Assembly (NCBI GenBank): GCA_030141605.1 | Contig: JAQGDQ010000554.1 | Span: forward strand, 1-64,000 | Source: Tubiluchus corallicola | Lineage: Eukaryota > Animalia > Priapulida | Length of the DNA: 64,000 bases | Direction of reading: 5' to 3' | In this document: one piece after another, positions 28,191-55,497 of the stretch | How the letters are laid out: each line of letters begins with the position of its first letter | Numbering within the stretch: the stretch's first letter is position 1 | The notes under the pieces: model-generated | What the model was told of the DNA's origin: nothing | The model's database searches: none | The model's input: only the letters and a program-made list of their open reading frames with translations | Program-made: the position numbers and the translations under genes

Positions 28191-29269
28191 AAAACAACTA
28201 AATTACTCTGATTTACTCAACTACGATACCAAATGCTAAAGTAGCAGAAGTCAAAAAGTTTGTTTACTACAAAAAAGGGTAGGGCTATTGCTTAAGCGTG
28301 CTTGCGTGAAATGTGTTCTTCTACTGCTAAAGAATTTAGAGTAACTTCTGACTTAGTAACTTAAGGGTAATTAAGGGTATGGATATCGCTAAATATCAGT
28401 TCGTTGAAACTTTTATCGTTGCTTGCACTTTATTTTGCTTTAGTGAATAAAGAAAGCCTTACCAAGTAGGAACTTTCTCATTAATTTCTACTCTAGTTAG
28501 CATGATGCTGAAAACTTGTGTGTTTATGAAAATAATTTTTATTATTTGCTTTCTATGCCATAAACGAGTTTGTGTAATTTGTTTAGTGATTTCTTATGTG
28601 CTTTATTAATTTATGGGTTAGTCTGTGTTGTTATTTTGTGTTTGTTGCGTTTGGGTTATTAACATATACTAGTTACTACATAAAACTTTTAAAAGTACAT
28701 TACGTGATTAGCTCTAAATGCCTATGTCTTAGGCCTACGTGCGTTACGATGCTTATTTGTGTTTGACTGTATTATCATAATGATAATGTTCATTGCATTA
28801 TTTGCTCTGCCATTAATTGCTTATTGTCTTTGCTGATTATGGTGTTTGGCTCATTGAGTTATTATTGGCTGATTTCCATATGTTTATTAGAGTAATATTT
28901 TATGCTTATTCAACTTGTTTATTGCAAGTTACTGACTTAGTGGCTTTCTCTGTTTGTTAAGTGCTTGTTACTTATTATGTTTGTCTATTTTATTGTATAT
29001 CATTTTTTACTTTATATTTTTAAATTTCAATTTTTCAATTAAATTCAGTTTTACTTTCTTAACATGAGTTAAAATATTAATTGTTATGTAAGAATTTCAA
29101 CGTAACTAAGAAGTAGGGGTGAACATTGAACGACTGTATATTATATAAAGGAGAGTGCTCTAGTTACATAGATCTAATTACTAGTGCTTTTGTAAATTAG
29201 TAACATTGTTAAAAAGCCACCAGTAGATTTGTCAGTACAACGATTTCGCTCTGATTGTTGTTTCTAGCC

Positions 29270-32200: not shown

Positions 32201-35200
32201 ACTTGTAGAATGGCCTTCATGGTTTACATGTTCAATTATGCCCTTGTCTCATCGTGAAAGAGAGATTTTGTTGAAATCATAATTTTACACTCCTTCAGTG
32301 GTTCATTGTTGAACACCTAACCCGGGTAACTAACAATTAGATTTAGCAAATTAGTCCTGTACACATATTTTTCAGCTGTTGTAATGAGTACTGTGACTTT
32401 GATAAAATTGCTTGCAGTGAATTACACACAAGCTATTGTCCTTATTAGCATAATTACATTTCTAGGTTGTACAGTCTTGCTTAGTTGGTGTGTGCAAACC
32501 TAATCCACAGATTTACCATCACACACTAGATCTACTAGATGTTAAGCCATCTGAGGCTGTATTTTTGGATGACATTGGTCAAAACTTGAAACCAGCTGCA
32601 CAATTGGGCATACATACAATAAAAGTAATGTCAGTTTCTACTGTTTAGTTCAGTTGCATTTTTTGAGTAGATGTCACCATACTAAAAGTTGAAGGAATTA
32701 TCCCAGCATATTAATGAAATGAGTAATAATCTACTATATTTTTTTCATACGAAATTTTTATCGAGAGAAATTAGGTGATGTGGTTCTTTTAAGTTATGAT
32801 GGGCAAAAATTTGTGACTTTTAAGTATTACACGTGTTTTGATGATAAATGCAAATTGAAGAAACTAAATTTTTATATATATAAATTATCTGTTCATTTCA
32901 TATTTATAATAATTTTTAAAATTGTGAGATTTTTCTCTAATTATTGCTTTCAGGTTGAGATTTGCTTAATTTCAAATGTTTACACTAAATTCCTTTAAAG
33001 AGTAGGTGTCTGGATAAATTGGTCAGTGCATGAATGAATGAATCAATCAATCAACAGCTGAACAAATGAGCGAACATATATACGTATCTGTATGCGAATT
33101 TTGCAGTATATTGATACTTATTTAATGATTTTAAGAACAACTATTCTTTTGATGTGCTTCATGCCTTCCTTGTTAAAAAAATGTAAGAAGTGCTTATTGA
33201 TCTTTACAAGGTTTTATGTTTTCAAATTTGTAGAAATATAGCTGCAGTTTGTGTAGACTGTACACATTTGCTGACATCAGCTTTGTTGTTTCATGCTATC
33301 CATAGTGTGAATCATTTTGTTGAAGCACTTAGAATTTTTTTGCCTATCATTTTATGCATATTACTTTATTTTTAAAGACTCAATGTGTTTAACATGGTTA
33401 TACATCTTAATTGTTTAGGTGCTTAATCCGACTCAAGCATTGTCTGCTTTATCGGAATTACTTGATTTTTCACTGAGCGGTTATTTTCGTGATACAGTGG
33501 CAATTAGACGACACCATCAGATTGATTTAGATAAACTTTTGTCCTATCTGCGAAATGTTCATCACATGTCAACAGATGGTATAGTATACTTTTGTAGACC
33601 CTTGTTTCATTGTGAAGACATATTTTGCTGAAGTTCTAATTTTACACTCCTTTAATGGCAAAATGTTGTTAGCACAGCAATTGTTTGCTTAAGAATGCAA
33701 AAATAGAGTTTGTTCGATTTTGAAGAGAAGACGCTTGCCAAACTTTTTTGAGAAGATTTTCAAAACTATTTTAAGAAATGCAATCAAATTATGTGGCCTT
33801 AACCCAATGATAGATTTTCATATATGGAGCTGTGGTCGAGTCAGAATTAATAACATAAAGATTTATTTGAAATCAGTAATTTATTGAAGGAGGAATTACT
33901 AGTATAAGAATTCAGACCTGTTCTTCCACATGAGTTGGTAGGCCAATTGGGGGAGCATCTTCTTTGTAAGTGGGAGGTTAATCATTCGAATCTTGGTCGA
34001 TTTGCAATTTTTAGTACCTTCCTCCATTTAGTTAATTAAGTGAAGTATTACATAGTATTGGTGGACATTTTAAAAACCTAAAGCTTTGTGTTGAAAGTTC
34101 ACTGTTTCTGAGTGTTTTTGGTTGAGTGACAAATTATCTTTTTTTTAATCAAAGGCCTAGTACCCAAATGAAATACAGCAAAAAGTCCCATTAACTGACT
34201 TTAGTAACTAATACTGTTACTGTTGGATTTCAGTTTCTGCTTTAGATAAAGCTATATCTTGCATTATGTTTAATCTGTTTTATATGTGAATTTTAATCTT
34301 GTCTTGAAGAGCAAAAATCTGATCTTTCAGTCCTAATTTCATAAATTTTGGTTGTCATACTTGTAGTTATATCTACCACTTTCTTGGTTTTTATAGATAT
34401 AATTAGATATGGATTAGATATAATCTAGCATAAGTGTATGTATTTCGTTCTTTTTTCCATTCAAGTTTGTTCTTAGAATAATTACGTTGTGGATGATTTG
34501 TCAATAAGGTTTTGGCAGTTTTGATTTTTAATAATTGAGTGATTTAGTCAGATTTTTACTCATTTATTTGATGCAGGACCTGTAAATTTACGGCAGTTTG
34601 CTCACGGTCAGTCTAATCCTACATATCTACTATCTTGTGGTGGGAAGAACTATGTGCTAAGGAAGAAACCGGTATGCTTTTTAGCCACTAATTTACAAAC
34701 AAGATCAGCATTAGATTTGCTAGTTATAAATTTCAATGGCTAAGGGCTCAGTTGTTTTTCTATATAGTTCTATTTTGTTCTGTTTGGCGGCCATTAATAT
34801 TTAATCATAATAGCCTAGCATATTTTCAAAATTTATTCACCATTCTGTTCATAGAAATTTCCGGCATTTCATAGAAATAGCTACAACTATGCTAATTAGC
34901 CATTTTATGTTATAGGTGTTACTAATTTATTTTTGTCGAAGATAATGCATACGATTATGTTATTTAGCCATTTTCTGTTACATATGTTACAAAGTTATTT
35001 TTGCCAAATATACCCAGATTTCTTTCCTTTCTAGCCAGGAAAGCTGTTGCCATCAGCTCATGCAATAGAAAGAGAGTTTCGCATCATGACAGCCGTGGGA
35101 AATCAGGGTGTGCCAGTGCCAAAATGCCATTTTCTCTGTGAAGATAATACGTATGTCCATTTCTTATGTTGATACTTTGTTGTACATCCATTTTTAATGA

Positions 35201-38200
35201 TGGCACCAACCAACAATTAGTTAAATTTGAAGCCGAACTTGTAAATAATGTGAAATGTAAAAAGTTGGAACAGCCAGTTTAAACAAGGGATGTTCTGCAT
35301 TCAAGGCAGATGCCATGATCACTAGACTATCATGTCCTCTGCAATAATGACAGCCCAAACTCATCTCTTATAGCTGGCCAACCAATTCAGCATTTCTAAT
35401 GTTAAGTTGTTTATGCTAGAGCGATTCTAACTATTCAGATTGTTTTTTAATTTTGGTTAATTTTGAGTGCAAAAGTCATGCCTGGTGAGCACATTTCAAA
35501 TCCAGGCTGTGTTCCATTTTTTCATATTTTGTGTTTCAAGTTTAGCTTCATCATTAACTGTGTTTGTACCATCATTAATAATTACCTGGATATTAAATTT
35601 ATAAATTATTAATTAATCAATTTTTAATGTCCACAGGTTAGTCAAAATGACTAGCACAATGGTTTTTTAATCATACTTAAATATGTGCTCAATGAAAATG
35701 TACGTCTGCATATATGGTGGTTTATATTCAGTGTGATAGGCACACCATTCTATCTTATGGACTACGTTCCTGGCCGATTGTTCAAGGATCCATTTCTTCC
35801 TGACATGACACCAGAGGAACGTGGCGCCATCTATTCCGCAGTGTGCGACGTTCTGGCCATGATTCATCGGGTAGACATTCAGCGAGCGGGTCTAGAAGAT
35901 TTTGGCAAATCGGGTATGCAGGTGGTTATGTATTTTGTTTTTCTGTTAAGTTAAGTTACTGGTGTTTTACTATGTGAAATATGACAGCATTTGTGGTATG
36001 AAGCGCTATTTGGAAAAAGGTAGTGTGCAGTGAAGACTGCTTCTGCCTCAATTTATAAAATAACTCTATTTAGCTATAATATTGCAATATTTACCTATCA
36101 AGTGAAAGGACGGGTAAAATCATGCAGGTTGCTGCTATATACAGCTACGAATATCTTCTATTTCTTGCATGGATTAGCATCCTGAATGGTCATTTTATCT
36201 TTCGTAGTTGTATTTGGTTTAATGAGAACTACTTGAAATGCTGCTCAACTTTTTTTAATAAAAACTACTTGAAATGTTGCTCAACTTTTTTTCATGAGAA
36301 TTACTTGAAATGTTGCTCAATTTTTTTAATGAGAACTACTTGAAATGTTGCTCAACTTTTCTTCAAGAGAACTACTTGAAATGTTGCTCAACTTTTTTAA
36401 TGAGAACTACTTGAAATGTTGCTCAACTTTTTTAATGAAAACTACTTGAAATGTTGCTCAACTTTTTTAATGAGAACTACTTGAAATGTTGCTCAACTTT
36501 TTTAATGAGAACTACTTGAAATGTTGCTTAACTTTTCTTCAAGAGAACTACTTGAAATATTGCTCAACTTTTTTTAATGAGAACTACTTGAAATGTTGCT
36601 CAACTTTTTTTCATGAGAACTACTTGAAATGTTGCTCAACTTTTTTGATGAAAACTACTTGAAATGTTGCTCGACTTTTTAATGAAAACTACTTGAAATG
36701 TTGCTCAACTTTCTTTTTAATGAAAACTACTTGAAATGTTGCTCGACTTTTTAATGAAAACTACTTGAAATGTTGCTCAACTTTTTTAATGAAAACTACT
36801 TGAAATGTTGCTCGACTTTTAATGAAAACTACTTGAAATGTTGCTGAACTTTTTTAACGAGAACTACTCGAAATGTTGCTCAACTTTTTTATGTTAGATT
36901 ATAATTTAATTTATTATATTACAGATTACTTCTAATTGGAAATGGCTACAGAAGTGGTCGAAACATTTTTGGATTTTTAGTAAAATGATGTTATTTGAAT
37001 AGGAACCGGAGTTCATTAACAGATTAACCATCAAGTATAGCTACAAAACATAAATGTGAATGTTACTACTATCACCAAGTTTATAATGTACACATTTATC
37101 TGTGGTATTGTTATTAAATACCATAAATACCATAATACCATATTGTTATTAAGTACAATGACAGTGACAATGTACTCTTACAGTTACAGTTATTGTTTGT
37201 CTAGGTTCTTACTGGACTCGGCAGTTAAACACCTGGACACGACAGTTTGAAGCAAGCAAAACACATGAGGTGCCGGAAATGAATGACCTCATTTCCTGGC
37301 TGAGGTCAAATCTTCCAGAAAAGGAAGCCCGTGGAGTTGTGCATGGCGATTTCAGGTACGGCTTCAAATTTTGCAGGCTTTGTTTAATAGTGAATCTGAT
37401 TATCTGGATTTTATTTCTGAATAATCTGATTTTTGGTCAATCTGTACAAGATTTTGCTCGACGAGTTTTGTTTGGCATCTCAGCTAGTTCAGGAGATAAA
37501 ATCTTTTATAGATTTAAAACATATTTTCATTTAGGACAAAAAATTCATCAACGACAGCCATGTGCAGTAACTGGAAATGACAAAATTGTATTGTATTGTA
37601 TTGTATTGTATTGTATTACATTACATTATATTATGTTTATATTAAATAAATTTCTGACAATCCAGCCCGCTTGACTTGTATAATCAACTTAGAGAGCTGT
37701 CTGAATTCTCAAGGGTTGTTACATAAGTATATGGATAGGTTTACTGAAAAGCAAGTTGTAATCTACAGAATTGCTTTGTAGAAGAACTAAAAACAAAATT
37801 AAGATGTCATTAAAGAAATTTGCGTCAATTTATTAGATCGCATTAAGCGAAATTTAGCTACAGTAATGCGTGAAATAAAATTGTAGATCAATGTGAGATC
37901 ACAATTAAAAATAGGCAAAAATTAAACAATGGATTGAAAAGAAAAAGCTCACTTTTATCTATCTATTAGCTAGTATCAGGTCTCTACCATTAATAATATA
38001 TTAATTATTACAGTCGTCAAGCGTTAGTGTTACTTAAAGCTAAATACATCATCTTGAAATTTTGGTGTGTTGCCTACATGCTGTCTTATTGCACGTAGAG
38101 CTTGCATAAGCAGCAACTCTATATAAAACCTGTAAATTTAACCTCCCATGGTAACCATTAGGCACAGTCATTTTAACAGTAAGTCTAAGTGGTTTGAAAT

Positions 38201-41200
38201 AAGTTTAGATAACATTGCACGTAGGTAAAAAAATAATCAGAGCATTTGTAGCGCACACTTCGCTACTCTAATTAAGCAAAAGCATAAATAATAACACGTA
38301 TTTTTGGCAAGTCAGTGACATATTTTGGTGCACGTTGGAATAGTGAAACAGGGATTTTTTTTCCTTTTACCAGGTGCCACAAGCATTTTAAATTATTAAG
38401 AATTTTCTTTTTCAGTTAGATATGTTTTTTCAAACCTGCAAGCTTATTGCAAAGTAACATAACTTTGAATGGAAGGTTTTTATGCAAACTTTAAAATTTT
38501 CTTTTCTTCCCCTCTAAACAACATAATTACATATATTTACATACTAGGTAAACAATATTACTATGGTACTTTAGTGCAATCTTTTTACATTGCTGTCTTC
38601 TGTTAAATCTCTGAAACCATTTAGTATTACCACAGATTGGACAATCTTATCTTCCACCCATCTAAACCGGAAGTTGTGGCAGTTTTAGACTGGGAACTAT
38701 CGACTTTGGGCGATCCGCTTGCTGATCTTGTCAATTGTTGCATTGTGTACCATTCCACTCCAGATTCCCCGCTTCTTATTGGTAGGTAACAAAATTGCTG
38801 TCATTTTGTGTTTGTACATATTATCTTAGAACTCAATGTAAGTTATTGTTCTTGTTTCTTCTAGAAACGTTTCCAGACAAGAACGTAATGTCAGTCTTTT
38901 GTATGTTATTTTATTTGCTTATACATTTTTATATATAATATGTTTTTTGTTTGTCTAATTATCAGCTACTAATTATTTTTGATGAGCAAGCAATTCGTAG
39001 CATGTTCTTCTACCATTTATCTTAATGTTTTGCAAGATTAGAATATGGAAAACTCCAGTACACTGTGATTGTCAGAAGCAGGTAGTTTTTCATTTTGATT
39101 ATTAACAGAATAAACCATTGTGGTTACCTAGTTTGTTGTGGCTAAGTGAAGAATGAACGTTTGGAAAGTTTAAGAATTGGTGAAAAACCAGGTATTTTTC
39201 GAAGCCGTTTCACCGATTCACATTTCTTATTTGGTATTAGTCAAATGGCTGGAGCCGAGGTTAAGGTTTTTTCATCCTAGTCTTTTGTTTAATAATATTG
39301 CAGAACTTCTGTAATTAATTAACAATTCTAAGAAGAGGCTTTCGGTGTAGTGTGGCATTGATGCATTGGCTAGGCAGTGAAAACTGGAAGGCATTTGGTC
39401 TGAGTGAGTGGCTAGTACAACAATTTCAAAAAAATTTACTTCACAGCAAAGTACACCGCTACCAGGAAATGGTATCATTCCAGTTAGTAAAGTAAAAGAA
39501 AAGAAGAGCAAATTTGTCATTAACCTGTAATTAAGCAAAATATGTAATTAATCACTCTGAGATTATTTTTTACAGGTTTTGGCGACGCAAACTTACCTGA
39601 GTTGGGAATACCGTCCGAAAGTGAGTTCTTGGACATGTATTGCAGGCGAATGGGTTTACCGCCAATAGAAACTTGGAACTTCTGCCTGGCTAACCTGTTC
39701 TTCAGATTTGCAGCTATAACACAGGGCATTTACAAACGTGCTTTGCAAGGTACATAATGAATGTTGTACACTTATTCAAATCTTTCTGTATTTTTTTTAA
39801 ATTGTTTTTGTTCTCTTTCTGCTTGTTCTCATTTTTACAATTTCATTAGTATATGTTTGAGGAATATATTAAATCGAGGGTGTTTGTTCATCTGCATCTT
39901 ACATACTGTGAATTTTTTATGTTTGAAATATTAATAATGCTGTATAACTGTGTATATGGCTTATGAAAATAGGCAGTAACACAATTGTTTCTGGATGTCT
40001 TGTCAAATGTGCATCATATCATTAGGATCATTCACGTATATATCATCTTTATTCGCATATGAATTCAAGAATTACGTGGTACACGTGAAAATTTAAAACT
40101 ACAAAAAGTGTTTACAACAAAAACATGTGCACTCAATAAAAAAAAATAAAAAATACGTTTAGAGAAGAACATATATTGATCTGTTGATTTTTTGTACGGT
40201 TTGCATGCTTTGAGCCACTTCCCAGCATTTATTAATAGAGGCTACTATTGGTTCTAAATGGATGTGGCGGGACTGGAACATGACTATTTACTAATAATAA
40301 TTCTATAAAATGAAATACTTGACCTCCAAGAGATGTCTTATGTAAACATACACATTCCAAAATGCACACAGCCTTCATTGAGAGGTAATAGCCAGTGATA
40401 TCACAAAATAACCGGCAGTCATCTGTTAATTTACTAACCGTGCCCAGTGCTGACTAACTTTCATAGCAAACACACTCTGTCACAAATTAGCTTCTCCTCT
40501 GCGGAATTGCTTTCCGAATAGTAGTGTTTACTATTTACAGTTAAGTCAGCAGAATGTTTGAAATTTCTTTCAAGTATAAGTTGATTTGAGTTTAATGTGT
40601 TTTGAATGACAACCCAAGTTTCGTATTTGTGCTGTCTTAAGTGCTACCATGTTCAGAAGCTCTTTCACACAGTAGATGGTGTTATTTGTTTGCTTTGTAC
40701 TTTGAACTTCTAATGTTGTCTCATCACAGTCTGGGCAAAAACTGAATAGCTCATGCCGGTGCCCTGGTGTTGTTATGCTGTATTTATTGTGCTGATAGCA
40801 TAGAAGTTAAGGTGGTTGGGTATAAATTTGTGTGAATCTATGCAGATTTATGTATGTGTTGAAACATTTACATTGTATGTACACTTACATACTTACATAC
40901 TAAACTTTTATATTACCATCATATCGTTTGGATCATTCACGTATATATCATCTTTATTAGCACATGAATTCAAGAATTACGTGATACAGTTCTTTTGTTT
41001 CGAGACTTACAAAGATGCCTATATTTAGTTTTACTGATAAATATTCGTTATCCACTATTGTGTGATACTTTGCTATAGTAGTTAATTTATTTCCACTACT
41101 GCAGTGCAAAGTTGAAGGTCTTTCCTGTAATTGAGTTGCGCATTTTGGTTAGGAACTTAGGATAACCCTTGCTTATGTACAAAGGTTCTGTCTGGGTATA

Positions 41201-44200
41201 ACCAACGTAAATACTAGGTAAACAATTGAGCCCGGCCTTGCAGGTCAGTTTTAGTGTTGGGTTAAAGCTCTTATAATTGTGAGTGACTGTGAATAACTGA
41301 GTGCAGCTTATAAATTCAGGGAATTGTTTCATAAGGCTAATTTCAGAAAGGTTCTAAAATTGAGTACGTTTTTGTTGTTAGTTTTTGCTGGTTTACACTA
41401 TAACCTGCAGTGTGTTATTAATTTCAATATATATACATAAGTGATTAAAACAACACAGCTATTATAGTTGGTCTACTTGATCTTTAACTAAATGAATTCC
41501 TTTTTTACTATTTCTGCATTTACGTTCAACCAAAAGAACCGATGCAACATTTTAACATTTTTGCTCAAGTCCTTCCTTATTCTGACTGAGAATTACCTTG
41601 GTTCGGTTTTTTAGTAAACATATTTTGTATGGTAACTGTGAAACATTTGCAGTGGCCACTGGTCAGCTCTCATATAGACTAATAGAGGACCTAAATGTCA
41701 GAAACGAAGTTTGAAGTACATATAACTACAGTAAGTAATTTAAACTAACATTCTCGCTGAAAAATAACCGAATACTGATTTTTTTTAAATTATTCCATTT
41801 CAGGTCAGGCTAGTGGTGCAAATGCTGAATTTTTAGGACTTTTGTCATCCCAACTTGCTCAGAAAGGTTTAGAATTTTCACAGAAGCGAAGTTTTTCGAC
41901 GGTGTCACTATCAAATACAGCTAGCCAGTCAGCTACAACAATGTCAGCAGGTAAAGACCTAGAGAAGCATTTCAAAAATTTGCCATCATTTACGTCTTAA
42001 ATTCAAAACGAGTGGCGCTTCCATGACTTGGTTCACTGTACACTTTAGAGAGTTTGCATAGCTGCTAGTAGTGCACTGTGAGTCTTCCAAGCTAGATAAG
42101 AAAGCCCTGGGATGTTTTACACGGATAGCTGATTTATGATAATTTGTAGCTATATTTTTTCTCATACATTACTAATTGACCTACATTGTTATGACGCTTA
42201 TTTAGTATATTACAAAGAAAAGTATCGTGAAGTTCAAAGATGCTGTTTTAGGTTGATTATGTCGCACACAGATTACCTGTGACCTATAGTAAAGTTGTGT
42301 ACATATGTATTCCTTTGTGGTCATTCTTTTCTAAGCAGAGTAAGCTGTCAACACACTGTTACTAATAAAATTTATTGACTGCTCTTATGCTTGGTCACAA
42401 ATTTTTTTCACTAAATGACCACCAAATTCAACTCATTTCAATCCCACGACAAGTACCACATTACACAAAATTTAATCAAAATCGAACAATTTTTTTTTAT
42501 TTTATGCAGAACTGCAAAAAACACAAAGGTCTTGTTGAAATACTCACATATCATTACTTTCCCACTATAATTTACTTTCTTTTAGAATGCATAACACACT
42601 CGCTTGAACTTGGTTGATTATGTCATCAACAGCAAGACAATCAATAATTTTGTGGAATTGTTCATGCAGTGTGAAAGTATATATGCAGCATTGATTAGTC
42701 TTGTTATTTATAAAAGTGTTAGTCTTACAAGTAATTGTTGTAGTATTTGTGGTTGGAACACGTTTTCGCTGAAGGGAAGTTGTATGCCTTATTGCAAGAA
42801 AATATCATTTACGAAACAAAACGAAATGTATTATTAAAATATAGTCTACTGACAGGTAAAAATTAAGTGTGTATTAAGTCTCTATATTTGCACAGGTCAT
42901 GTTCCATCTACTATCGAAGCCTTGTCACCGAAAGCACAGAACTATTACCAGCGAGTAAAAGATTTTATTCAAAAAAATGTAGTACCACTGGAACGCGAGT
43001 GGGCAGAATTTCACCAGCCAGGAAACAAAGATCGGTGGACGGACTATCCTCGATTAAAACAACTTAGGGTATGCAGTTAGTAATGTACATTATCAACTGT
43101 GAATAGTCTGCTTATTGTGGTGGTTCTAACCATCCCTATCATTGTATTTGTAATATGAGCTAATCTTCCACTGCTTGTTACAGGCCAGTGCAAAGTCTGA
43201 AGGATTATGGAACATGTTTATACCCCTTGAGTCAGATCCTGAACAGAAGTATGGTTGTGGCCTCACTAATGCAGAGTACGCACATATATGCGAGTTAATG
43301 GGACAATACTTTGGTGCACCTATCGTAAGTATGTCTGTCAGTCTTTCAGTTGAACCAGATGTATATCCTCTATGTTTTTTTATAGTTGTAAAATATAAAC
43401 ATTTTCAAGTTTAATTTTCACAGATGAATTATCAAGTTTCTTTTTAACAACTGTCCAAACAAATGGGAACGAAGTTTACTAGACGTAACTTAAGCATCTC
43501 TTTGAAGTTACAAGTTTTATTACAGTTTATCTGACAGGTTTATCAAAAGAGATGATTAAAAAAATGTTTTTTTAAGTGAGTTTGCTCTAATCTGTATGCT
43601 GGTAAGCAGCCATGCTTCCAGATGTATTGAGATCATTTTCTGATGGATCCACTATAGTCTTGTCCCTAGAATATTTTAACTACTCAGTTATAATATACGA
43701 TATATTTAGTTCACACAGTATAACTACACCAAGTTACATGGTAAATAGAAGCAGAAATTTATTTATTTGTGCTGAAAAGCCTAAAAATGCTGCTTTTATA
43801 TGCACAACACATTTGCAAAACTTTATGAATTTGCAGGTTGTTAGACAGGAGCAGTTTTGTTTACTCTTTATTTTTTTATCACCCTGCAAATTTATGTGAA
43901 TCAGTTAAACAGTATAATAATTATAATTGTGCCAGACCAAACAGAGTTATCAGAAATTGATATGTAGGACTTTGTGGTGAAATTATTGTGATCTCATTGC
44001 TTAAATAGGAATGATAGCTATTTCAATATCAGGTAGCTTACCAAACATAGAAATAAGTTGTGTTGATATTTATAGGAATACGTGGTGCTCATATTGAGGT
44101 TGTCTGAACCGCTTTCCGTAAAAGTTGACTTTTAATACCCGCTAATGGTGATACAGCAGGAGTAGTAAAACTGACTTAGTTACTCGATGGATGGTGTTAG

Positions 44201-47200
44201 TGTTCTTAGCCATGCACAGTGGACTGAAAGAAGAGAAAATTTTGATTATCAATGATTTAGAACAAATGCAATTTTACTATAGCTTAGCTTTAGGTGATGA
44301 GTCTCAGTAAACTGTGCCTTTTTAAATATGAAGTAAAATAAATTACAATATCAAGTACTAAACTACCTTAGAGTGCAAATCAATGAGTTAATGAGTTTTC
44401 ATACCCACTTACCTTGATGTGTCATTTAGAACATCATTCAGCATTGTCATTGATCCGTTTTTTTCGTACAAATTTCGAACACAGAGTAATCCTATTGCGA
44501 TGTCACACTATTGAAAACTAATAAAAGAGCTTATAACATGAATAGTTACAACAAGGATGAGAACAGCATCATGGCAGAACGGACGTTGTTATAGAGGTAC
44601 TTTGCAAGTAAATCAAAAATTGATGCTCATTGTTTTTCTTGCCAAGGTATTCAACTGTCAGCCACCTGATTCAGGCAACATTGAGGTGTTGGTAAAATAT
44701 GGAACAGAAGAACAGAAGGAACGTTGGTTAAAACCAATGCTCAACGGCGAGATCAGATCATGTTTCGGCATGACAGAACCAAATGTGGCTTCATCTGATG
44801 CCACTAATATTCGTTCATCAATCGTTCGTGATGGCAACCAATATGTGGTCAACGGAACCAAGTGGTGGACGTCCAGTAAGTAGTAGGATAGCTGTTTGTA
44901 TTTTTTACATTAATCCTCACAGATTGGATAAGGGAGTAGTAATGTGCAGCGGAAGTGGAATCGATGTTTTTTGCAACGCTGCATTGCCATTAGGCCTATG
45001 TTGCCATGTCTGACTAAAGCATATCCATTGTGTGGGAATAGTTGCTCGTCTGACAACACTGATCTACTGCCTGTGTTTCTTGTTTTCTGTTAAATGATTT
45101 ACACATATGGTGTCACTGGTTAATCAGCTAAACTATTTGCCTGTATGGCTGCTTTGGAGCCAAATTTAATAGAGCTTTGCAGCTCAGAGTATGAAAGTTT
45201 GAATATTGTTAAATTTGAAATTCGAAGTAAGTAATACCATACCAGGGCTGGCTGTAAAAACACGTTGTTTGCATAAAGTTTCGTTTTCTTGCTTTATTTT
45301 GCTGGTTTTAATTTGTTTTCTTGTGATTATCATTATTTTCTGTTTGCGTTACCAACATTAAATTTTATTTTGCAATTCTGATCTTGCATACATTATTGAT
45401 ATGTAGATGCTCTTCACCCGGATTGTAAACTATGCATTTTCATGGGCAAAACTGATCCAAAAGCTGCTCGACATGTGCAGCAGAGTATGATTCTTGTTCC
45501 CATGGATACGCCAGGTGTGAAGATCAAGCGCTCACTTTACCTATTTGGGTATGATGATGCACCAGGTACTGCTGCTTATAAAGAGTTATTAAAATTTACT
45601 TTCATATTTTGTATGTGCAATCAGTATATACATATTTACCATACATATAATAATTGTGTTGAAACTGTGTTAAAATTAACTTTAATTATTATTACTGACA
45701 GCAAAATAGACTTATCATTATTTGTTTATGCATTGCTAACTAAAATATACAGTTTACGTTTTCTTACCTAATATTAGCAGCAAAAGCTTTCCCACACTAG
45801 ATGTTAGTGTAGTTAAAAAGTGTTAACACTCATTCTGGCATTTTTCATTCAACCACAAAATCAAAAATGATCCATCTAAGTAAATAATCTTATATGGTTA
45901 AAAATACAAAAACTCTTGCACTGCAGTGTAGTGGGATACACATGTCACATTAGACAGATGTTACAGCCTTAACCCACTCTTGCAGAGGGCCATGCTGAGG
46001 TTGAATTTAAAGATGTTCGAGTGCCTGTGAGTAATCTACTATTAGGAGAAGGAAGAGGATTTGAAATTGCTCAAGGTCGCCTAGGACCTGGTCGGATTCA
46101 CCATTGCATGCGACTCATTGGGCAAGCGGAGCGAGCTCTGCATTTGATGATCAAAAGGGTATAAACATATTAAGGGACTTCTTTAACGTGGCATAAAATG
46201 AACGGTTATGTCATAATTAAATGTCTTTAAAGGCCTGTATAACCCCAGCAGTCATTGAAGTTTTTTCAATGCATTACATGATTACATAAAAAATTCAGTT
46301 ATTATTAAACAAAAGAGATTTATAAATTTAGTAACTTAGCCTTTTCTGGTGAATTTTGAACACGTGCATTGTGTTCCTTTGTCTTTATAAAAACAAAAAT
46401 TGACGTTTGACCCAATTTTTTGGCGCATCATACTACTTTGAAGCATCATAGCATAGGTTTAACTAAGCCGATTTGTGGACAGTTTTGGTTTGCAAGCACG
46501 CATATAGTGAGTAGTTGCTATTACTTTATGAAGCTTTTCTTTTTACTTTAGGGAATTTTAATCTTGATCTTTTTCTTTTTGTTTTCTAGAGCTTAGAAAG
46601 GGAGACGTTTGGGAAGAAATTAGCTGAGCATGGCACAATTCAAGCCGATATTGCTAAGAGTCGAATTGAGATTGAACAGACCCGCCTACTTGTGCTAAAA
46701 GCTGCTCATATGATGGACACAGTCGGAAACAAGAAAGCAATGTCAGAAATTGCTATGATCAAGGTTGCTGCACCTAATATGGCTCTGAGGGTGCTGGATA
46801 GATCCATTCAGGTATAGTAATAAAATCTCTTAGGAGCAGCATTTTGAACTTTAAAAATTTGTTATAAGGTGCCATCCACATATAACAATATCTAGTTTAG
46901 GGTAGGTAGCACGATACGTGACAAGGTAGATAGGTGATTTAGCCATGATATCATTATATGACTTGACACTTTGATACGGAATAAGGAATACTGGTTGTAA
47001 ACGGTTGTGAGGAGGAGGAATCTACAGAATGTGTCGATGAGAATGAGTTGGGGCTGCTACCACCGATGCCAGTATAATCCACTGATATTTTCTCATTAAT
47101 TAACACAAATGATGTTGTTGACTGTCTTTGGAGGAGGAAGAATAAAATGTACAAAGAGCTACATGGGTGTGATATCGATATCAGGTAAGGGGTAGGTAGG

Positions 47201-47642
47201 TGGTTGGGTATATGATAGTGCCATTATAACACAAGGTAGGTAAGTCCTCGAAATCGGCCGAAAAGTTGATATCGTTATGTGGATGGCCCCTAGCTGGTAT
47301 GTTAGTGATGGCTATGTGGTCTCAAGGGTCTTGCAGATTCAGCTTATGTTTGTGTGAATTATCTCACAGCCAATTTCCAAAGTTTAGCAAAACAGACTTT
47401 ATTTAATTGGATAAGTGAGCATGTAACCCCAGGAAATGATAAAGTTAATGGAAACATCTAACACAGGAAAATGCTTTTATTTGATTTAGGCTCATGGCGC
47501 AGCCGGAGTAAGTCAAGACTACCCATTAGCGTTTCTTTGGACCTGGGCACGGGCACTGCGATTAGCAGATGGCCCAGACGAGGTGCACCGAAGAGCAATT
47601 GCACGTATAGAAATTGGTAGATACATGAAATCGATGCTTTAA
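29270..47642 (+). CDS. ACAD10: Acyl-CoA dehydrogenase family member 10 (HAD hydrolase + APH-like kinase + ACAD domains), about 1045 aa, 19 coding exons
   Basis: Exons 29270-29483, 29686-29834, 31720-31914, 32466-32624, 33419-33578, 34577-34671, 35035-35150, 35732-35913, 37205-37355, 38636-38781, 39576-39749, 41804-41950, 42896-43068, 43184-43324, 44647-44875, 45407-45565, 45986-46158, 46590-46811 and 47490-47642 (sum 3138 nt, in frame). Motifs: [13 protein letters not shown] and FLDD; kinase [16 protein letters not shown] and [10 protein letters not shown]; [33 protein letters not shown] and [11 protein letters not shown]. Confidence 0.95.
30910..31592. mobile_element. Tc1/mariner-like MITE, older copy of the family at 59850-60796
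   Basis: TA-flanked ends (TA|CA..gcttaatagactca ... ggcacctgctg|TA). Shares gtatagaagtatgagtcat and gtgaaggaaaaatattgagtcaat with the 59.8-60.8 kb element. Confidence 0.7.
36221..36890. repeat. Minisatellite, 19 tandem copies of a ~35-bp unit, in an ACAD10 intron
   Basis: Unit AATGAGAACTACTTGAAATGTTGCTCAACTTTTTT, head to tail, varying mainly in T-run length. No unique spacers. Confidence 0.97.
46868..47290. mobile_element. PIF/Harbinger-like MITE (423 bp) in the last ACAD10 intron
   Basis: TIRs GGTGCCATCCACAT / ATGTGGATGGCCCC, flanked by TAA and TAG. Confidence 0.7.
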
Positions 47643-48176: not shown

Positions 48177-48545
48177 ATGTTGATGAAATGTTACTACTGT
48201 AGAGAGTAAAATTTTTCTTTATAATTATACTTGGGAAGAGCAAAATAATGGGATAGGCTGAAAAGATATCTATTTTTATTTATGGTTGATAAAGAAATAA
48301 TTGTTGTCTGTAAATACGAGTCAAATTTTATTGATCATTAAACATATTTGTTTCTGAAGGTTATACAGCTGTCTTCTTTCTTATTACAAAACAGAACTGA
48401 CATCAGTGAAAAATATAGAAATTAGATTACACGTAGATTTGTGTCAACAGATTCAGCAAATTCTCTTAAAGAAAACTGTAGTGAAAGAATACCTCCCTGC
48501 TTTAATTTGTGACTAAAACTTTTTAATGTCAAAGCAAGAACAAGT

Positions 48546-49259
48546 TCAAGAGTAAAAAAGTCTAGCAAACAAAGTATCATGCATATTCTGAACAATATCA
48601 ACAATGGGACAACTAATATGAGCATTTTCAACAGATGATTCGGCATTTCGAGCAATGATACCAGGAATTAGCTGCTGAAGACTGAATAACAGCCTCTGTG
48701 CCTGAAAGCAGCCTATGTGACCTAGGCGCACAGCACCTGACGAAATGGTGCGCAGTACGCCAAACATAAACACGTTCAACACAGCTGACATTTCAAGCTT
48801 TAAATGAGCACAAATGCATCCCAGAACAACAGGGTAGTGTCCAAACATTTTATTGTCATCTATCAGTTCCTGGAGATCGGCAATAAATGAGACGTGAAAG
48901 ATTTCTCTGCTTGTGTTCACCAGAGCTCGACCCTGCCTGACACTCGCCCTGTTTGCAACATGGTTGGTGACACTGGCTTGGTACAAAGCATCAAGTTCCA
49001 TCAGTCGGTCTTCAGACGACGCATTTTTGTAGGCGTCTTGAAGAAACGGCATGCTCAATGAGCCGGCGTTTTCAAGACACGATATAGCAAACTTCTTGAA
49101 ATCCTCGTCACTGTTGTCAACGATGTGCAACTTCACAGCGGCTTCATACCCGATGCTGTGACTGAAACTTCCGGTTGGAAATGCACTGTCAGACAACTGC
49201 AGCAAAAGTAATTCTGCCGACACTGTGTTGTCCGATTCTGTTGAGCAGGCCTTTGCCAT
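48546..49259 (-). CDS. ureF: Urease accessory protein UreF, 237 aa, intronless
   Basis: N-terminal LLQLSDSAFPTGSFSHS.G.EAA, central RAS.RQGRAL, GH.PVV.G and S.AVRLG.IG...AQ, and C-terminal H..L..RLFYS are UreF hallmarks. Start context is ACCATGG. Confidence 0.95.
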   Translation of the reverse strand: MAKACSTESDNTVSAELLLLQLSDSAFPTGSFSHSIGYEAAVKLHIVDNSDEDFKKFAISCLENAGSLSMPFLQDAYKNASSEDRLMELDALYQASVTNHVANRASVRQGRALVNTSREIFHVSFIADLQELIDDNKMFGHYPVVLGCICAHLKLEMSAVLNVFMFGVLRTISSGAVRLGHIGCFQAQRLLFSLQQLIPGIIARNAESSVENAHISCPIVDIVQNMHDTLFARLFYS

Positions 49260-49273
49260 GGTATCTGACGATA

Positions 49274-52200
49274 TCAGGACTTATCCGATGAGGTGGCACC
49301 GCCTTTATCTGAACTACCCGAATGACCAACTACTTTAAAAGCTTTTGATTCGGCACCAGCTCTGACTAACAACTCGGACTCTATGTTTTTGTTTATAGCT
49401 TTTTGCAAATTCTGGAAAATAAGTACAAACAGTAATAAGAAAATATAAATAATGCACTTACAATGATTAAAACTTCATTTTAGGTGATATCAGTACTAAA
49501 AATTTGAAAATCACTTTCACAATGCAGAAATCATTTGATAACAATAATTAAACTTAATAGACTGTAAATCCTATTTAAGTTTAATAGGATGAAAAGCTAT
49601 GTAGGTTTGTTACATACATTTTTTGTACAAGATATTGTTTAGATCAATATTTAAAAGCCAAGCTTCAGATTTTTTGTTATTTCTGAGGTTTCCAATCACT
49701 TGTGCTTGAAAGTTCTAGTACACCACATATACTTCAGTGAAACTGATTAGCTAAACAGAATAGCAAAATGAGGAATACAATTGAAATGAAAAATACATGT
49801 ATATATAAAAAGCAGTGCAAAAAGAGTTTGAATGAATTATATAAACAACCTTACTTTTTTCAGTGTTTCAGATTGAACTTTTTTAGCCTTTTTTGGAGCA
49901 ATATATTTTGCACCTATAAAAAAGAATAATACTACAGTTTGTGTAAGCTACAATGGAAATTGTGGACCCCATAAATTTCTTTGAATTTCAGCATTTTGTG
50001 TATTTCATGTGGGCTTGACCAGCAGTTTGTCCAACGCACTCAAGTTCACATTCGCAACAAAAAATTAAGGGTTATGTGGAAGTTTGCAATTAAGACTCAG
50101 TACAAGTTTATCTCATTTGGGATGCACAGAACAAGTCTGACTTGTTATTTTTACCATTATCAAAAGCATAGTGGCTATTACCATTGCGGCTACGTCAATG
50201 TCGCACTGAGCATTTTGTAGGTTTGGAGATTCTTGTGGACTTGTTAGTCACCGCCATAATTTTTTAAAATGAATAAATCCTTTTCAGAATTAGAACCAAG
50301 GAAAAAAGAAAGAAAGCACAAAGCATTTCAAACTACTACTGTAATTCTGTTCTAAGTGGACAAAAGAAAAAGAAAAATCGTAATGCATTACTAAATTAAT
50401 TTTCTAGGTGAGTTTTTCATTTATATTATTAGCACAAAAAGGATGTCATACGAAAAAGGATACAAGCAATCGCACAGAAAAAACTGTAGCACAGCAGATT
50501 AAAATACAAAGGAGAAACATAGATGCATAAAATCCCTAAGTAGTCGTAGTCACAAAACAGAGTGGGACACAACAGAAACTAACGAAACGTTTAATATAGG
50601 CGGTGGTTTATACGTACAAAAAGTTAACTGGTTACATAGAAGATAAACAGAATGCAACCATGGAGTTCAGAGTGAATAACAAAAGATAAAAACTGCACAA
50701 AGTGATTAATCAGAAGAAATGAGTAAACACACTAGGCTACAGGCAATAGCCAAAAGATCATGGCATCAAGTTAACAAATTACTTGAAAAAGTTGACTATG
50801 GATAATGTAAAAAGTTAACTAAATTTAAGCGGTCCACCTAACACAGACTACGCTAGCAATTTCAGGCATTAGTTAAATCTTATCAGTATTCATAGTTAAG
50901 TTTAACTCAAGTTTGTCCACTTTCTAAGACGTTAGCTGCATTCAAAGTGCTAGTAACGCCTGATTGTTTTCAGTGGATGCCTTAAACTTAATTAAGTTTA
51001 AATAATATCTATAGATGACGGGTTTTAAAAATAATTTGTTAACTTAATATCGCAGGAGTTTTGAACTTTTGGCTCTACCCATATTGTGTTCATACCTTTC
51101 TTCTAATTAATTACTTTAGACAGTTTTGTTTTCTCCTTCAGGGTAGCTTGTATTGCATCCGTCCTCTCTGTTGATTAATCATTTCATAGAGTTTTATTCT
51201 TTTGCCATTCACTCTCCACTCCATGGGCTGTATTCTGTTTATCTTCTACCTAAACTTTGGAACTTTTTCTTGTATACAAGGCATGTCCCTGTTAGACAGT
51301 TTCTGTCATGTTCCACTCTGATTTGTGACTGCTGCTACTAACTGCACATTTGTGCACTTTTCCTCCGTGTCTTTATTTGCAGTACTTCTGCATTTTTTCT
51401 GCATTCTTGTATCCTTTTTAGTGAGATATCATTTTTACATATTAATAATATATAAACAGAAAACTTCCACAAAAGATTATTTAACGGCTCTAGTAATTTC
51501 TTGTGATTTTCTCTGAACTTTTTGTCCTCGTTTGTTCACCTCAACTACAGTGATACTAGGGATGCACCAACGATTTTTTTCTCCGAATATCAGTATAAAA
51601 ATCCGGTCCGGCGAACTTCGGTTATAATCACTGAACGTTCAGTGAACCTTCAGTATACCGAAGTTACTTTTTTAACAGCTATCACATTCCGTAAAAATTA
51701 TATTAAAAGAACCGAAAATTTACCTACAATGCTTAGAAAAATTTATCCGAAAAAAGCTGATAGTAAACAGCAGTCATGGCCCTACTGCCGACATTTGCTT
51801 TCTGTATGATAACTAGAAGAATGCAATGCACCATCAGCACACAATTCGTGTCAATTCAGACGTAGCGTGGCAGTGCAGTAATTGTTTATACACGACGTAT
51901 TGGCTTTTCCACTTCGAAATCAATCAATGAGAACTCGAGCTAGTAAACAATTATACTATTGCAGTTTTGCCAAAATATAGTTTTTATTGATTACACAAAA
52001 TAGTTTGAATACCTTTTGAAAGAATTAGGGCTGCTTATAAAATATTTAATACTTTAATACATAACATTAAACAAACAGATTTACTAATCAAAACAATTTT
52101 TCACAACTTACCAATCATCACTAACTTAAAATGATAAAACATTACAGAGTTTATAATTCATTTAAGCTTTGGTTTGGTGGCACCTGGTTTTGGTTCGGAT

Positions 52201-53720
52201 GGTGAAAATGTGCCGTCGGTGCACCATTAAGTGATACTTTGAAGGCAGTGACTAGAGGTACAGATCCGTATCCAGAACTGCAACAACTAAAAATACGGAT
52301 CCATGTCTAAAAAGCATTCACTAGAAAATACGGAGGATCCGTACTGGGAACCATATTGACGAGAAATACGGTTCGCCATCAGAGAGGGGCAATATATCAT
52401 TTTCTTGTTTATCCGCAACCTCAAAATCCACAATTGTAAATATCCGCATCCGCTAGACCCGCAGATTGAGTGAAATTGAATATCCTCATAGATATCTATA
52501 TTACGTAATCCCTAGATAGGACACGCGGTGAATGCACGCAACACTCCGTCATATTACGGTGAGCGACACATCACCTGAGCAGTGATAAATCACAACTCAA
52601 ACTAAGGAAAATTACAGTTAGTAGGTTATCACATTCACAACACTCTATAGAAAAAAAATACTGGCTGGTAGGTCATCATATTACAACACTCTAAGAAATT
52701 CATAACACACTAAGATTTAAACTCTTGCTAACTGGCCTACTACACATCAAAATACTAAAGTTTTTTGTAACAAATAAACAAAATAAAGCAAACAAACTAT
52801 TAATTGGTAGCTTCTGCAACACCAGCAAAATGGTACCGAAGAAAAACGGTATGGTTACAGGCTGTATAATGCCATATCACCATTTTCATGAAGTAGGCAT
52901 GTACTTTTCAACGATGTGCAGGGCACATGGTCAAACCCCGTATGTCATAAAAATTGTCAAAATCCGTATGTCTTGTAAATGTCACAAAGCGCGGATCCGT
53001 ATTTGTTGCAAAAATAGCTACGAAGACGGATCCGTATCGCAGGAAAGACAAGTACGGATCCGTACCTCTAGCCACTGCCTACTTTGAAATGTTGCACATG
53101 TTCTTTCTTTTTTCTTTGTCTTTTAATTGTGGGATTTTTTTGTTCATTGTTTATTTATTTACTTTATCATATTTATTATTTTCAAAATAGGGTTTTAAAT
53201 GAGGTGACAAAAGACACAGAAGTGCCCAAAATTACTTTCAAATATAATTATTGCTGCTGCCATAATTTGATTATTGTCGCCTGTGCCTCGGTGTTCGGTT
53301 GCAGTGGCTAACTCAAAATTTTAGTTTTTCGTGCATTGTCGGCTTTTCCTGCAATATCGGGAAAGGGCATGTGGCAGAAAGATGTGTGTGAAAGGCTGAG
53401 TGGGGAACGGCACACAGGTTTTTGATGATTGTCTTCATTTCAGGTTATTTGCTATCAATTTGATTTTGGATTAGCTCGTTGTATAATAGCTGGAATAGTA
53501 AATAATTTGTTCCAAGGTCATTTGTTCTTGTGGTCGATCTGATGTTGAATTCGATCCGTTCAAACCACCGTTTCAAAATTTCTGCTACGTTGAGAGCTAT
53601 AGCAGTTACCATTATTAATGTCTCACCTTTCTTTGGACCTAAGACTTTTTTGTGAACAGATGACTTCTTTTTGCTGCCTTCCGGCGGTTTAATTTTCGTC
53701 TTCAATTTACCTTGTGGCAT
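49274..53720 (-). CDS. C19orf53: C19orf53 / Leydig cell tumor 10 kDa protein homologue (UPF0390, DUF2462), 96 aa, 3 exons
   Basis: Exons 53720-53627 (MPQGKLK...LGPKKG, donor GTGAGA), 49913-49855 (AKYIAPKKAKKVQSETLKK; tttatag / GTAAGG) and 49411-49274 (NLQKAINKNIESELLVRAG...DKS*; ttttccag). Phases 1 and 0 are compatible. MxQG, GPKKG..IAPKK and I.K.IE match the family. Confidence 0.9.
51557..52229. mobile_element. Non-autonomous hAT-like element (673 bp)
   Basis: TIRs TAGGGATGCACC / GGTGCACCATTA. Perfect 8-bp TSD AGTGATAC at 51549-51556 and 52230-52237. Confidence 0.85.
52244..53079. mobile_element. Non-autonomous Mutator(MULE)-like element (836 bp)
   Basis: 27-bp TIRs GGCAGTG(A/G)CTAGAGGTAC(A/G)GATCCGTA with multiple subterminal ACGGATCCGT palindromes. 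Perfect 9-bp TSD TACTTTGAA at 52235-52243 and 53080-53088. Confidence 0.85.
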
Positions 53721-53978
53721 AGTCTGCTTGGGTTTGTCAAAGACAGCGAATTCTTAACAGACCTTAGTAGGTCTAATCTAAAACTAGTAAAAGCTTTTAG
53801 AACTCAAAGTCAAAATAAAGCGAGCCTAATGATCTTGCAAATTTCATTCAACAGGTAAACGGAAAGATGAACAATCAGTATTAACAAAAATGAAAGCCTA
53901 ATTTGTTGTTAACAATAGCAATGTTAGTTTTGAAATGTTTAATTAGTAATACTAAATTTTGTAAAGTTCAGTAATACT

Positions 53979-54899
53979 GTGTGTTGGGAGCCGAGTGGAC
54001 CACTGAGCCAAGTAGACCAATTGGTCTACTTGGGCTAGCCCAAGTAGGACACTAGAGACAGGTCGCGAATTGAGTCGTTAAGTGTACTGACCCCGTCCGT
54101 TGTGCTTGTTTATGTAATAATAATAATTAAAAACGTTAGTACGCGTTGAATAATTTATTATACATCTAATAAAATAAAAGAATTTTATTCTGAGCTGGTA
54201 GAACGGACAATATTAAATTTGGTTTCGATATTAATGTTGTTGAAGTGAAAAAAACCCACTTTTTTGCGAATTCAACATTTGTTTAAGGTATATCATTTTG
54301 GATTTTCTCTCACTTCACAAACAGGTGATCCGTTTCACTACCTCTTGGGCAAATAATTGTTTTCTTATAAGTAAACGTTCTAGCGATCTATGTGTCCTAC
54401 ATGGGCTAGCGAGCCATGTAGGACAGTGCCCTACATGTTACAATACTACTGATAATATTAAAACTAATTATCCTTGCTTTTCTTAAATGTTAAAAATTAC
54501 TTTTTGGTGTTGTGAAGGCTTAGCAGCATCTGTCTCATTTTTAAATTTGCAATTATTTCTGTAATAACTGTGTGCAGAATTTCTCTCTTTAAAGCATTAG
54601 ATACTAGGTTTAATGTTATGATATATTAATGGAGTTAATCATAATGATGAAATTATTGTAAGAAATGCATTTGTAAATTGCCAAGGAATATCCATGTCTA
54701 AAAGAAATTTTGTTTTATGCTTTATTATGTCATAACAATACTTATAAACAATGGTAATATAAACTGGAAACAAGTTTTGCCAGAGCAAGTTTCTCGACAA
54801 AAATCGTTAGTGTCCTACTTGGGCTGCCCATGTAGGACACTACTTTTAGCGCATCAAGTGGTCTACTTGGCGCAGTGGTCCACTCGGCTCCCAACACTG
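53979..54899. mobile_element. hAT-like MITE upstream of C19orf53
   Basis: ~40-bp TIRs gtgttgggagccgagtggaccactg.gccaagtagacca at both ends, with internal palindromic ctacttgggct.gccca.gtagga repeats. TSD not recognisable. Confidence 0.75.
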
Positions 54900-55032
54900 T
54901 GGCAGTGTAACACATGCCCGTGTGAATGTGTGTGCTGCCATCTAGGTCTTGTTAGTTTAAATTACTAACTTGAGTCATGTATCAGAGACTATAATATCCG
55001 CCGTTGGAATAATAAAAACAATAATAGCAACA

Positions 55033-55033
<1 letters not shown>

Positions 55034-55116
<83 letters not shown>
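55034..55116. repeat. (TAA)n microsatellite
   Basis: Direct reading, about 27 units. Confidence 0.97.
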
Positions 55117-55118
<2 letters not shown>

Positions 55119-55497
55119 GAGAAGAAGGAGAAGGAGAAGAAATAATAACATATTATTATTTAAGTGATATACATTATAATCCTAAAATGCTTTAATTACA
55201 ACCAAATTAAAGATAAGTTTGAGGATAATTAAGACAGTTTACGATAAGATCGTACGTCAATTAAAGTTAAAAAATTAATTCTGAAAAAGTTACCGCCTTT
55301 ACTATAAATCCTGTAAAAATACTATAGTTAAAGGGCACCAGCATTCAGTTGAGAATTAAGTAATAATAATATTCTGTTGTTTATTTTGCTTATACTATAG
55401 TGTAATAAGTGCAGTTTTACTATACTAAGCTTAAGGCTGATCCTGAGTCAAATACGTGCTTACATATATGTAATGATCAAATCTAAGGAACGTTGGG

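Follow-up and report, generated by a model that had tools for sequence, protein, structure and literature searches.

A candidate bicistronic C19orf53-UreF locus in the priapulid Tubiluchus corallicola and related gene pairs in other animals

Gene content of the locus

The stretch analyzed here, referred to as the window, comprises 64,000 nucleotides (nt) of the Tubiluchus corallicola contig JAQGDQ010000554.1 (assembly GCA_030141605.1), in which two protein-coding open reading frames (ORFs) from families PF09495 and PF01730 lie on the same strand with a 14-nt spacer between them, an arrangement of which both members are kept in a relative. The first, C19orf53, encodes 96 amino acids (aa) in three coding exons with GT-AG borders on the minus strand. 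The second, UreF, shares exon 3 with C19orf53, and no intron follows the C19orf53 stop codon (Table 1). No strong trans-splice acceptor is present between the C19orf53 stop and the UreF start, where the AG at 49265 is preceded by 10/20 pyrimidines versus 14-15 at the true acceptors. A search of exon 3 and the spacer for poly(A) hexamers found none (several lie 3' of UreF), and local RNA folds near both starts, computed without shuffle comparison, reveal nothing notable.

Both proteins can be assigned to known families. While exon 1 of C19orf53 alone gives a weak Pfam match, the whole protein of the relative (P0122) matches PF09495 (DUF2462) with an E value of 1.7e-17, and the 96-aa spliced product differs from this intact homolog at 11 of 96 positions with zero gaps, which supports the exon model. 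P0122 also matches chains in the PDB that carry the name Leydig cell tumor 10 kDa protein homolog, from entries that are presumably pre-60S ribosome particles. UreF matches PF01730 (E value 2.4e-30) and, in a tree built with 12 presumed prokaryotic rows as contrast and no plant or fungal rows, places within an animal UreF clade (support 100/100) including corals, amphioxus, hemichordates, molluscs, and chelicerates, a position that led us to reject a recent horizontal import of UreF. The proteins P0004-P0020 form one animal clade spanning corals, amphioxus, hemichordates, molluscs, ticks, and the horseshoe crab, and a literature search on animal UreF found no paper on it. The 313-aa Limulus protein P0332 was considered as a C19orf53-UreF fusion and rejected, its match being limited to the UreF domain.

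In amphioxus, C19orf53 and UreF are located on separate scaffolds (44.5 and 34.6 Mb versus 20.4-20.6 Mb in B. lanceolatum; 3.7 versus 8.2 and 12.3 Mb in B. belcheri), and the amphioxus UreF isoforms part at three internal points, a pattern expected of introns as judged from the protein models. Since the amphioxus genes are unlinked and amphioxus UreF is apparently intron-bearing, the linked, intronless state of UreF in T. corallicola is likely derived.

The interval between the two start codons

An earlier note made from the sequence of the window reported that the 302 spliced nt between the two start codons (91+59+138+14) contain no ATG in any frame, exon junctions included, and a recount gives zero; the start contexts were likewise read correctly (Table 1). 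The gap exists only after splicing, since intron 1 contains 76 sense ATGs and intron 2 contains 6. Just 2 of the 64 triplets, ATG and CCC, are missing from the interval. However, the expectation of 4-5 ATGs that the note derived from a rate of 1/64 rests on the wrong null and overstates the surprise. Dinucleotide shuffles of the 302 nt contain a mean of 3.6 ATGs, with zero in 161 of 20,000 (p=0.008), and shuffles of codon order contain a mean of 2.0, with zero in 8.6% (p=0.09). When the window is cut into overlapping tiles of 302 nt, 0 of 1,274 lack an ATG on the plus strand and 6 of 1,274 on the minus strand.

The gap is fixed at the protein level, since no residue or dipeptide of C19orf53 could spell ATG: past its start the protein contains no Met, Cys, or Trp, and no Tyr, His, Asn, or Asp before a codon starting with G. 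Fifty-three sites are one change away from ATG (49 non-synonymous, 1 synonymous, and 3 in the spacer). The family of homologs is thus the fair null for the gap. Amongst 57 diverse homologs, retained from 62 representatives after dropping 2 partial or repeat matches and 3 with odd starts or lengths, 24 lack an internal Met and 10 are unable to spell ATG at all; the protein sequences lead to an expected ATG-free fraction of 25-28%. A vertebrate-rich set, made up of 110 of 114 new rows, includes 25 Met-free proteins and has an expected ATG-free fraction of 14%. The C19orf53 proteins P0128, P0146, P0159, and P0196 (Nematostella, Amphimedon, and fish-type) have neither an internal Met nor an ATG-capable dipeptide, and are candidates for hidden second cistrons.

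The gene pair in a relative

The best outside matches to the two proteins, P0002 (UreF, 90%) and P0122 (C19orf53, intact at 96 aa), are each single-member Logan entries found on one contig, the length of which is 1,938 nt in either case. Both ORFs and the spacer require ~1,020 nt and fit within this length. The contig looks spliced, since its 96-aa C19orf53 ORF is unbroken, and the intact C19orf53 and UreF of the relative appear to share one 1,938-nt contig, a match made by size only. When the other UreF and C19orf53 contigs were compared for equal size, no match besides 1,938 nt was found. Read run X2 yielded short diverged pieces with no splice joints at a likeness of 85 or 80, read run X1 covers the introns as DNA would, and neither is used as evidence. 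Of the 125 pattern matches from a metagenome scan that used UreF alone, none was a relative.

C19orf53 as a putative first cistron in other lineages

Metagenome contigs were also scanned with an alignment of C19orf53, the members of which are mostly Met-free; the 10 loci recovered were selected by peptide pattern and not by ATG content. By our reading, five resemble fungal genomic DNA and five resemble animal transcripts. A second long ORF directly follows C19orf53 in four of the five transcript-like loci (Table 1), a proportion that is not a frequency because all listed contigs are ~900 nt or longer. Three of these loci (L001, L005, and L010) open with a calanoid copepod spliced leader, present as one copy at the 5' end and matching a primer in a table of PMC4664967, and are therefore mature mRNA ends. 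Their second ORF is an SDS22-like leucine-rich repeat protein (E value 6e-91 for L005 versus human PPP1R7); in the fourth locus, L002, the position is occupied by BCCIP. The SDS22 and BCCIP partners show that the layout is not peculiar to UreF. Pooled, the intervals between the starts in the four loci contain 1 ATG in 1,243 nt versus 10.1 expected, a count reached by 0 of 10,000 shuffles. The lone ATG, in L010, begins a 7-codon ORF and stands in a poor context (T at -3, C at +4). The spacers of L001 and L005 contain no AG, so trans-splicing cannot cut there. Amongst controls without a same-strand partner, L003 has 1 ATG inside C19orf53 and another 4 nt past the stop, and the fungal L007 has 6. 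In L003 (L003:95-1830), a C-5 DNA methylase ORF lies downstream on the opposite strand, convergent with C19orf53 and with overlapping 3' ends.

Met-free representatives make up 8 of 9 homologs in the clades with bicistronic contigs versus 16 of 48 elsewhere. In the tree, Met-free proteins cluster in the L002 clade (6 of 7 rows, support 100/97) and in the copepod-contig clade (7 of 8 rows, 87/93, not starred), and the C19orf53 of the window groups with the L002 (BCCIP) clade at just 92/71 on 99 columns, so that its kinship with this clade is weakly placed. When four draws are made from the rest of the family, a count of at most 1 ATG arises in 0.6% of cases. The comparison proposed in the earlier note, of C19orf53 ATG content with and without UreF linkage, has a mixed outcome: the amphioxus protein, encoded by a gene unlinked to UreF, has 1-2 internal Met, whereas 16 of the 48 homologs from outside the two clades are Met-free like that of the window. 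Met-free relatives of L002 (the P0133 cluster, P0143, P0132, and P0124) come from contigs of 1,178-1,677 nt, a size fitting a C19orf53-BCCIP pair. Pro at position 2, which places C at +4, is shared by all four bicistronic cases whose start is known, but L003 and Met-containing homologs have it too, and it was therefore not retained as a bicistron signature.

Table 1. Coordinates of the C19orf53-UreF locus in the window and of the four outside loci in which a second ORF follows C19orf53
Feature	Position	Strand	Details
Nearest upstream ATG, 16-codon ORF	53797..53847	-	stops 76 nt before C19orf53 start
C19orf53 (DUF2462) coding exon 1	53627..53720	-	94 nt, 91 after ATG; GT-AG borders
C19orf53 start codon	53720-53718	-	context ACT-ATG-C
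Intron 1	49914..53626	-	3,713 nt, GT-AG; 76 sense ATGs; dispersed repeats inside
C19orf53 coding exon 2	49855..49913	-	59 nt
Intron 2	49412..49854	-	443 nt; 26% GC, no CpG; 6 sense ATGs
C19orf53 exon 3, coding part	49274..49411	-	138 nt, TGA at end; exon continues into UreF
Spacer	49260..49273	-	14 nt, no ATG; weak AG at 49265
UreF	48546..49259	-	intronless 237-aa ORF; ATG 49259-49257, context ACC-ATG-G
Candidate poly(A) signals 3' of UreF	48275..48527	-	ATTAAA 48527, 48506; AATAAA 48332, 48280; pattern match only
Spliced leader, C19orf53, SDS22/PPP1R7-like ORF	L001:56-1244		spacer 73 nt; 0 ATG in 340 nt
Spliced leader, C19orf53, SDS22/PPP1R7-like ORF	L005:64-1432		spacer 4 nt; 0 ATG in 289 nt
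Spliced leader, C19orf53, SDS22/PPP1R7-like ORF	L010:46-1355		spacer 41 nt; 1 ATG in 311 nt
C19orf53 (5'-truncated), then BCCIP	L002:1-1128		spacer 36 nt; 0 ATG in 303 nt

Proposed translation of the second cistron

The arrangement is moderately likely to represent one bicistronic C19orf53-UreF mRNA translated by leaky scanning. The spliced transcript would run through both ORFs, and a minority of 43S complexes would bypass ACT-AUG-C and initiate at ACC-AUG-G, while new AUGs arising in C19orf53 would be removed by selection, as they would intercept the scanning traffic. UreF may have arrived by retroposition, or by rearrangement with intron loss, and its position as an intronless ORF in the last exon would leave no exon junction after the first stop, sparing the message from junction-dependent decay. 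Both starts have A at -3, followed by C at +4 in the first and G at +4 in the second, an order that would fit a weaker first and a stronger second start. The earlier note was right that the first start lacks G at +4 (it has C), but the A at -3 makes this context middling and not weak. Since a first AUG with A at -3 should catch most ribosomes, UreF would be a minor product, its output a small fraction of that of C19orf53. A low UreF dose is plausible in this animal by analogy, because plant UreF leaders carry upstream AUGs and excess UreD and UreF hinder urease activation in bacteria (PMC3130180). The same source describes equal urease from one or two gene doses in soybean.

The note had named leaky scanning or re-initiation as the mechanism. 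The tight layout, the size-matched contig of the relative, and the nearly ATG-free outside contigs favor the former, and AUG depletion in the first ORF is a tested signature of leaky scanning in algal bicistrons, where it is found along with a weaker first context and is accompanied by reporter tests (bioRxiv 10.1101/2024.07.24.605010). An AUG-free first ORF helps only ribosomes that scan across it, having leaked past its start or resumed after a very short upstream ORF (uORF), and is useless to those that finish its 96 codons, as ribosomes translating the ORF never scan its inside. Re-initiation after C19orf53, from which ribosomes would restart 14 nt on at UreF with the AUG-free ORF as an incidental feature, is accordingly improbable. 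The very short spacers (14 nt here and 4 nt in L005) and the frequency of the ATG gap in the C19orf53 family would suit it. However, permissive uORFs usually have fewer than 30 codons in mammals, and re-initiation after long ORFs mostly needs a viral transactivator or the UGGGA motif of a termination upstream ribosome-binding site (TURBS), as described in PMC5972666; the count of this motif (TGGGA) in exon 3 and the spacer is 0, and spacers of 4-73 nt in the copepod contigs indicate no fixed coupling of stop and start. Even less probable is that a short uORF captures ribosomes that go on scanning, pass over the C19orf53 start, and begin anew at the second gene, which would likewise require an AUG-free first ORF. 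Out-of-frame ATGs do lie 8-10 nt before the C19orf53 start in the copepod contigs (L001:48, L005:56, and L010:36), opening uORFs of 7-8 codons that end inside C19orf53 and may route ribosomes to SDS22. A 16-codon ORF is also present in the window (53847-53797), but its stop falls 76 nt short of the C19orf53 start, leaving no overlap, and it may lie outside the transcript.

The remaining alternatives concern the transcript itself. UreF might be carried on its own shorter mRNA, started from an internal promoter or made by joining a spliced leader to the exon 3 acceptor, a possibility that is unlikely but the most serious of the rivals. Exon 3 and the spacer would then form a leader that must be AUG-free, and exons 1 and 2 would be AUG-free by chance, as the first 51 codons would be in ~55% of homologs anyway. 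The exon 3 acceptor is strong and its use as a trans-splice site is possible, the L002 spacer is acceptor-like, and in 114 of 159 dicistronic loci of flies at least one of the genes also exists in monocistronic form (PMC4528330). Against an internal promoter, intron 2 has no CpG and a GC content of 26%, whereas the region above exon 1 has an observed/expected CpG ratio of 0.92; CpG level does not mark a promoter at exon 3 either (0.72 for UreF versus 0.70 for the F-box/WD40 ORF elsewhere in the window). Against trans-splicing, the copepod contigs carry the leader before C19orf53 only, and two of them lack an AG in the spacer. Exon 1 could instead be alternatively spliced to the AG at 49265, fusing 31 C19orf53 residues to UreF, since exon 1 (94 nt) and 5 further nt are in frame with the UreF ATG, and the fused forms of MOCS1 offer a model; the UreF search covered 130-415 aa and was not aimed at fused forms. 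An in-frame join occurs 1 time in 3 by chance, the acceptor at 49265 is weak, and UreF begins at the same Met and spans 237 aa in both relatives, all of which leave the fusion very unlikely.

Several observations count against leaky scanning of one bicistronic mRNA. The A at -3 restricts how many ribosomes can leak past the first AUG, and most fly dicistronic pairs described in PMC4528330 fail the requirements of scanning. No RNA from T. corallicola was found, the 1,938-nt link in the relative rests on equal sizes and not on the DNA of the contig, and a shared contig is also compatible with a second, shorter UreF mRNA. Judged from the protein sequences, an ATG gap is expected in about 20-28% of homologs, or one in four to five, the window was chosen for its gap, and the gap alone, which shifts the odds about four- to five-fold, is weak evidence. 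C19orf53 proteins of Nematostella, Amphimedon, and several fish are also Met-free and may lack a linked partner. The outside contigs represent two lineages and not four, and with two draws from the rest of the family a count of at most 1 ATG arises in 10% of cases and a count of zero in 4%; the Fisher test of the clade contrast (p=0.003) takes no account of kinship, and one internal Met is present both in P0235 of the BCCIP clade and in P0149 of the SDS22 clade. L002 is 5'-truncated and may not be RNA, and the acceptor-like site in its spacer is strong (15/20 pyrimidines), so that it may be an operon cut by trans-splicing.

With UreF in T. corallicola, SDS22 in calanoid copepods, and BCCIP in a third lineage, it is possible, if tentative, that C19orf53 is a reusable lead cistron in animals, with a short, Met-poor ORF that scanning ribosomes cross almost unhindered; unrelated genes would have settled independently behind its stop and be made by leak-through, and selection would then have kept the first ORF AUG-free. 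If so, Nematostella, Amphimedon, and some fish would hide unannotated second cistrons. An AUG-poor ORF may invite passenger genes and selection may then keep it AUG-free, and one small gene with three partners in three lineages would provide a natural replicate for how bicistronic mRNAs arise, animal examples of which are usually regarded as one-off oddities. Met-free short ORFs would also serve as a cheap predictor of hidden second genes, and the locus gives an initial view of how the amount of a urease activation protein might be controlled in an animal.

Other features of the window

An F-box/WD40 gene, which we take to be FBXW5-like, occupies a single 634-codon exon at 24675-26579 on the plus strand, and intron loss may be common in this lineage. 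A multi-exon acyl-CoA dehydrogenase gene (presumably ACAD10/11-like) extends over about 29255-47642 on the plus strand and lies tail to tail with UreF, with 904 nt between its end and the UreF stop. Farther away, a TMEM117-family gene lies at 8203-19932 (+), where the first large ORF matches PF15113 and the extent to 19932 is read from the ORF list. Upstream of C19orf53, two similar short elements in opposite orientation are located at 53990-54060 and 54810-54900. The depth of run X1 is very high at 53983-54200, which suggests a small mobile repeat. An (AAT)n tract is present at about 55035-55120.

Comparison with known systems

Both the leaky-scanning mechanism and its sequence signature are already known, and the closest parallels are the green algal bicistrons (bioRxiv 10.1101/2024.07.24.605010), which share with the present locus a first ORF of small size (291 nt here; median 291 nt in Auxenochlorella), a short spacer, ATG depletion before the second ORF, and, as far as the order of contexts here suggests, a stronger second context. 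In contrast to these, the locus described here is from an animal and has a spliced first ORF and a first AUG with A at -3, and its co-transcription and mechanism are proposed. The same preprint summarizes similar results for the fly genes stoned and Snapin, dicistronic in Drosophila, in which the first cistron lacks internal AUGs and the second is reached by scanning. The genes at the present locus are different ones, and all three frames are clear of ATG. A study of stoned and Snapin (Wall et al. 2005) reportedly stresses in-frame AUGs in its title.

Literature searches and two supplement look-ups, with subscription papers and preprint supplements outside their reach, found no account of C19orf53 as a first cistron with any partner, nor one of it recurring as a lead cistron ahead of different genes. 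DUF2462, PF09495, Leydig, UreF, and urease are absent from 7 supplements of PMC7896298, and none of six names, two of them presumed fly gene numbers, is present in the fly polycistronic list (PMC4528330 File S1).

Plant UreF provides a further comparison, having an intronless ORF whose translation is proposed to be limited from upstream, by AUGs in the 5' leader (Cao et al. 2010, via PMC3130180). There, splicing of a leader intron removes the upstream AUGs, whereas the element upstream of UreF here is an entire conserved gene. MOCS1 and MOCS2 likewise place two conserved ORFs on one animal mRNA. Their ORF pairs share one pathway and are widely conserved, while no function common to C19orf53 and UreF is known, and amphioxus has the two genes unlinked. 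Set beside these systems, the C19orf53-UreF arrangement is a real feature and probably a new bicistronic locus in an animal, of a kind already known.

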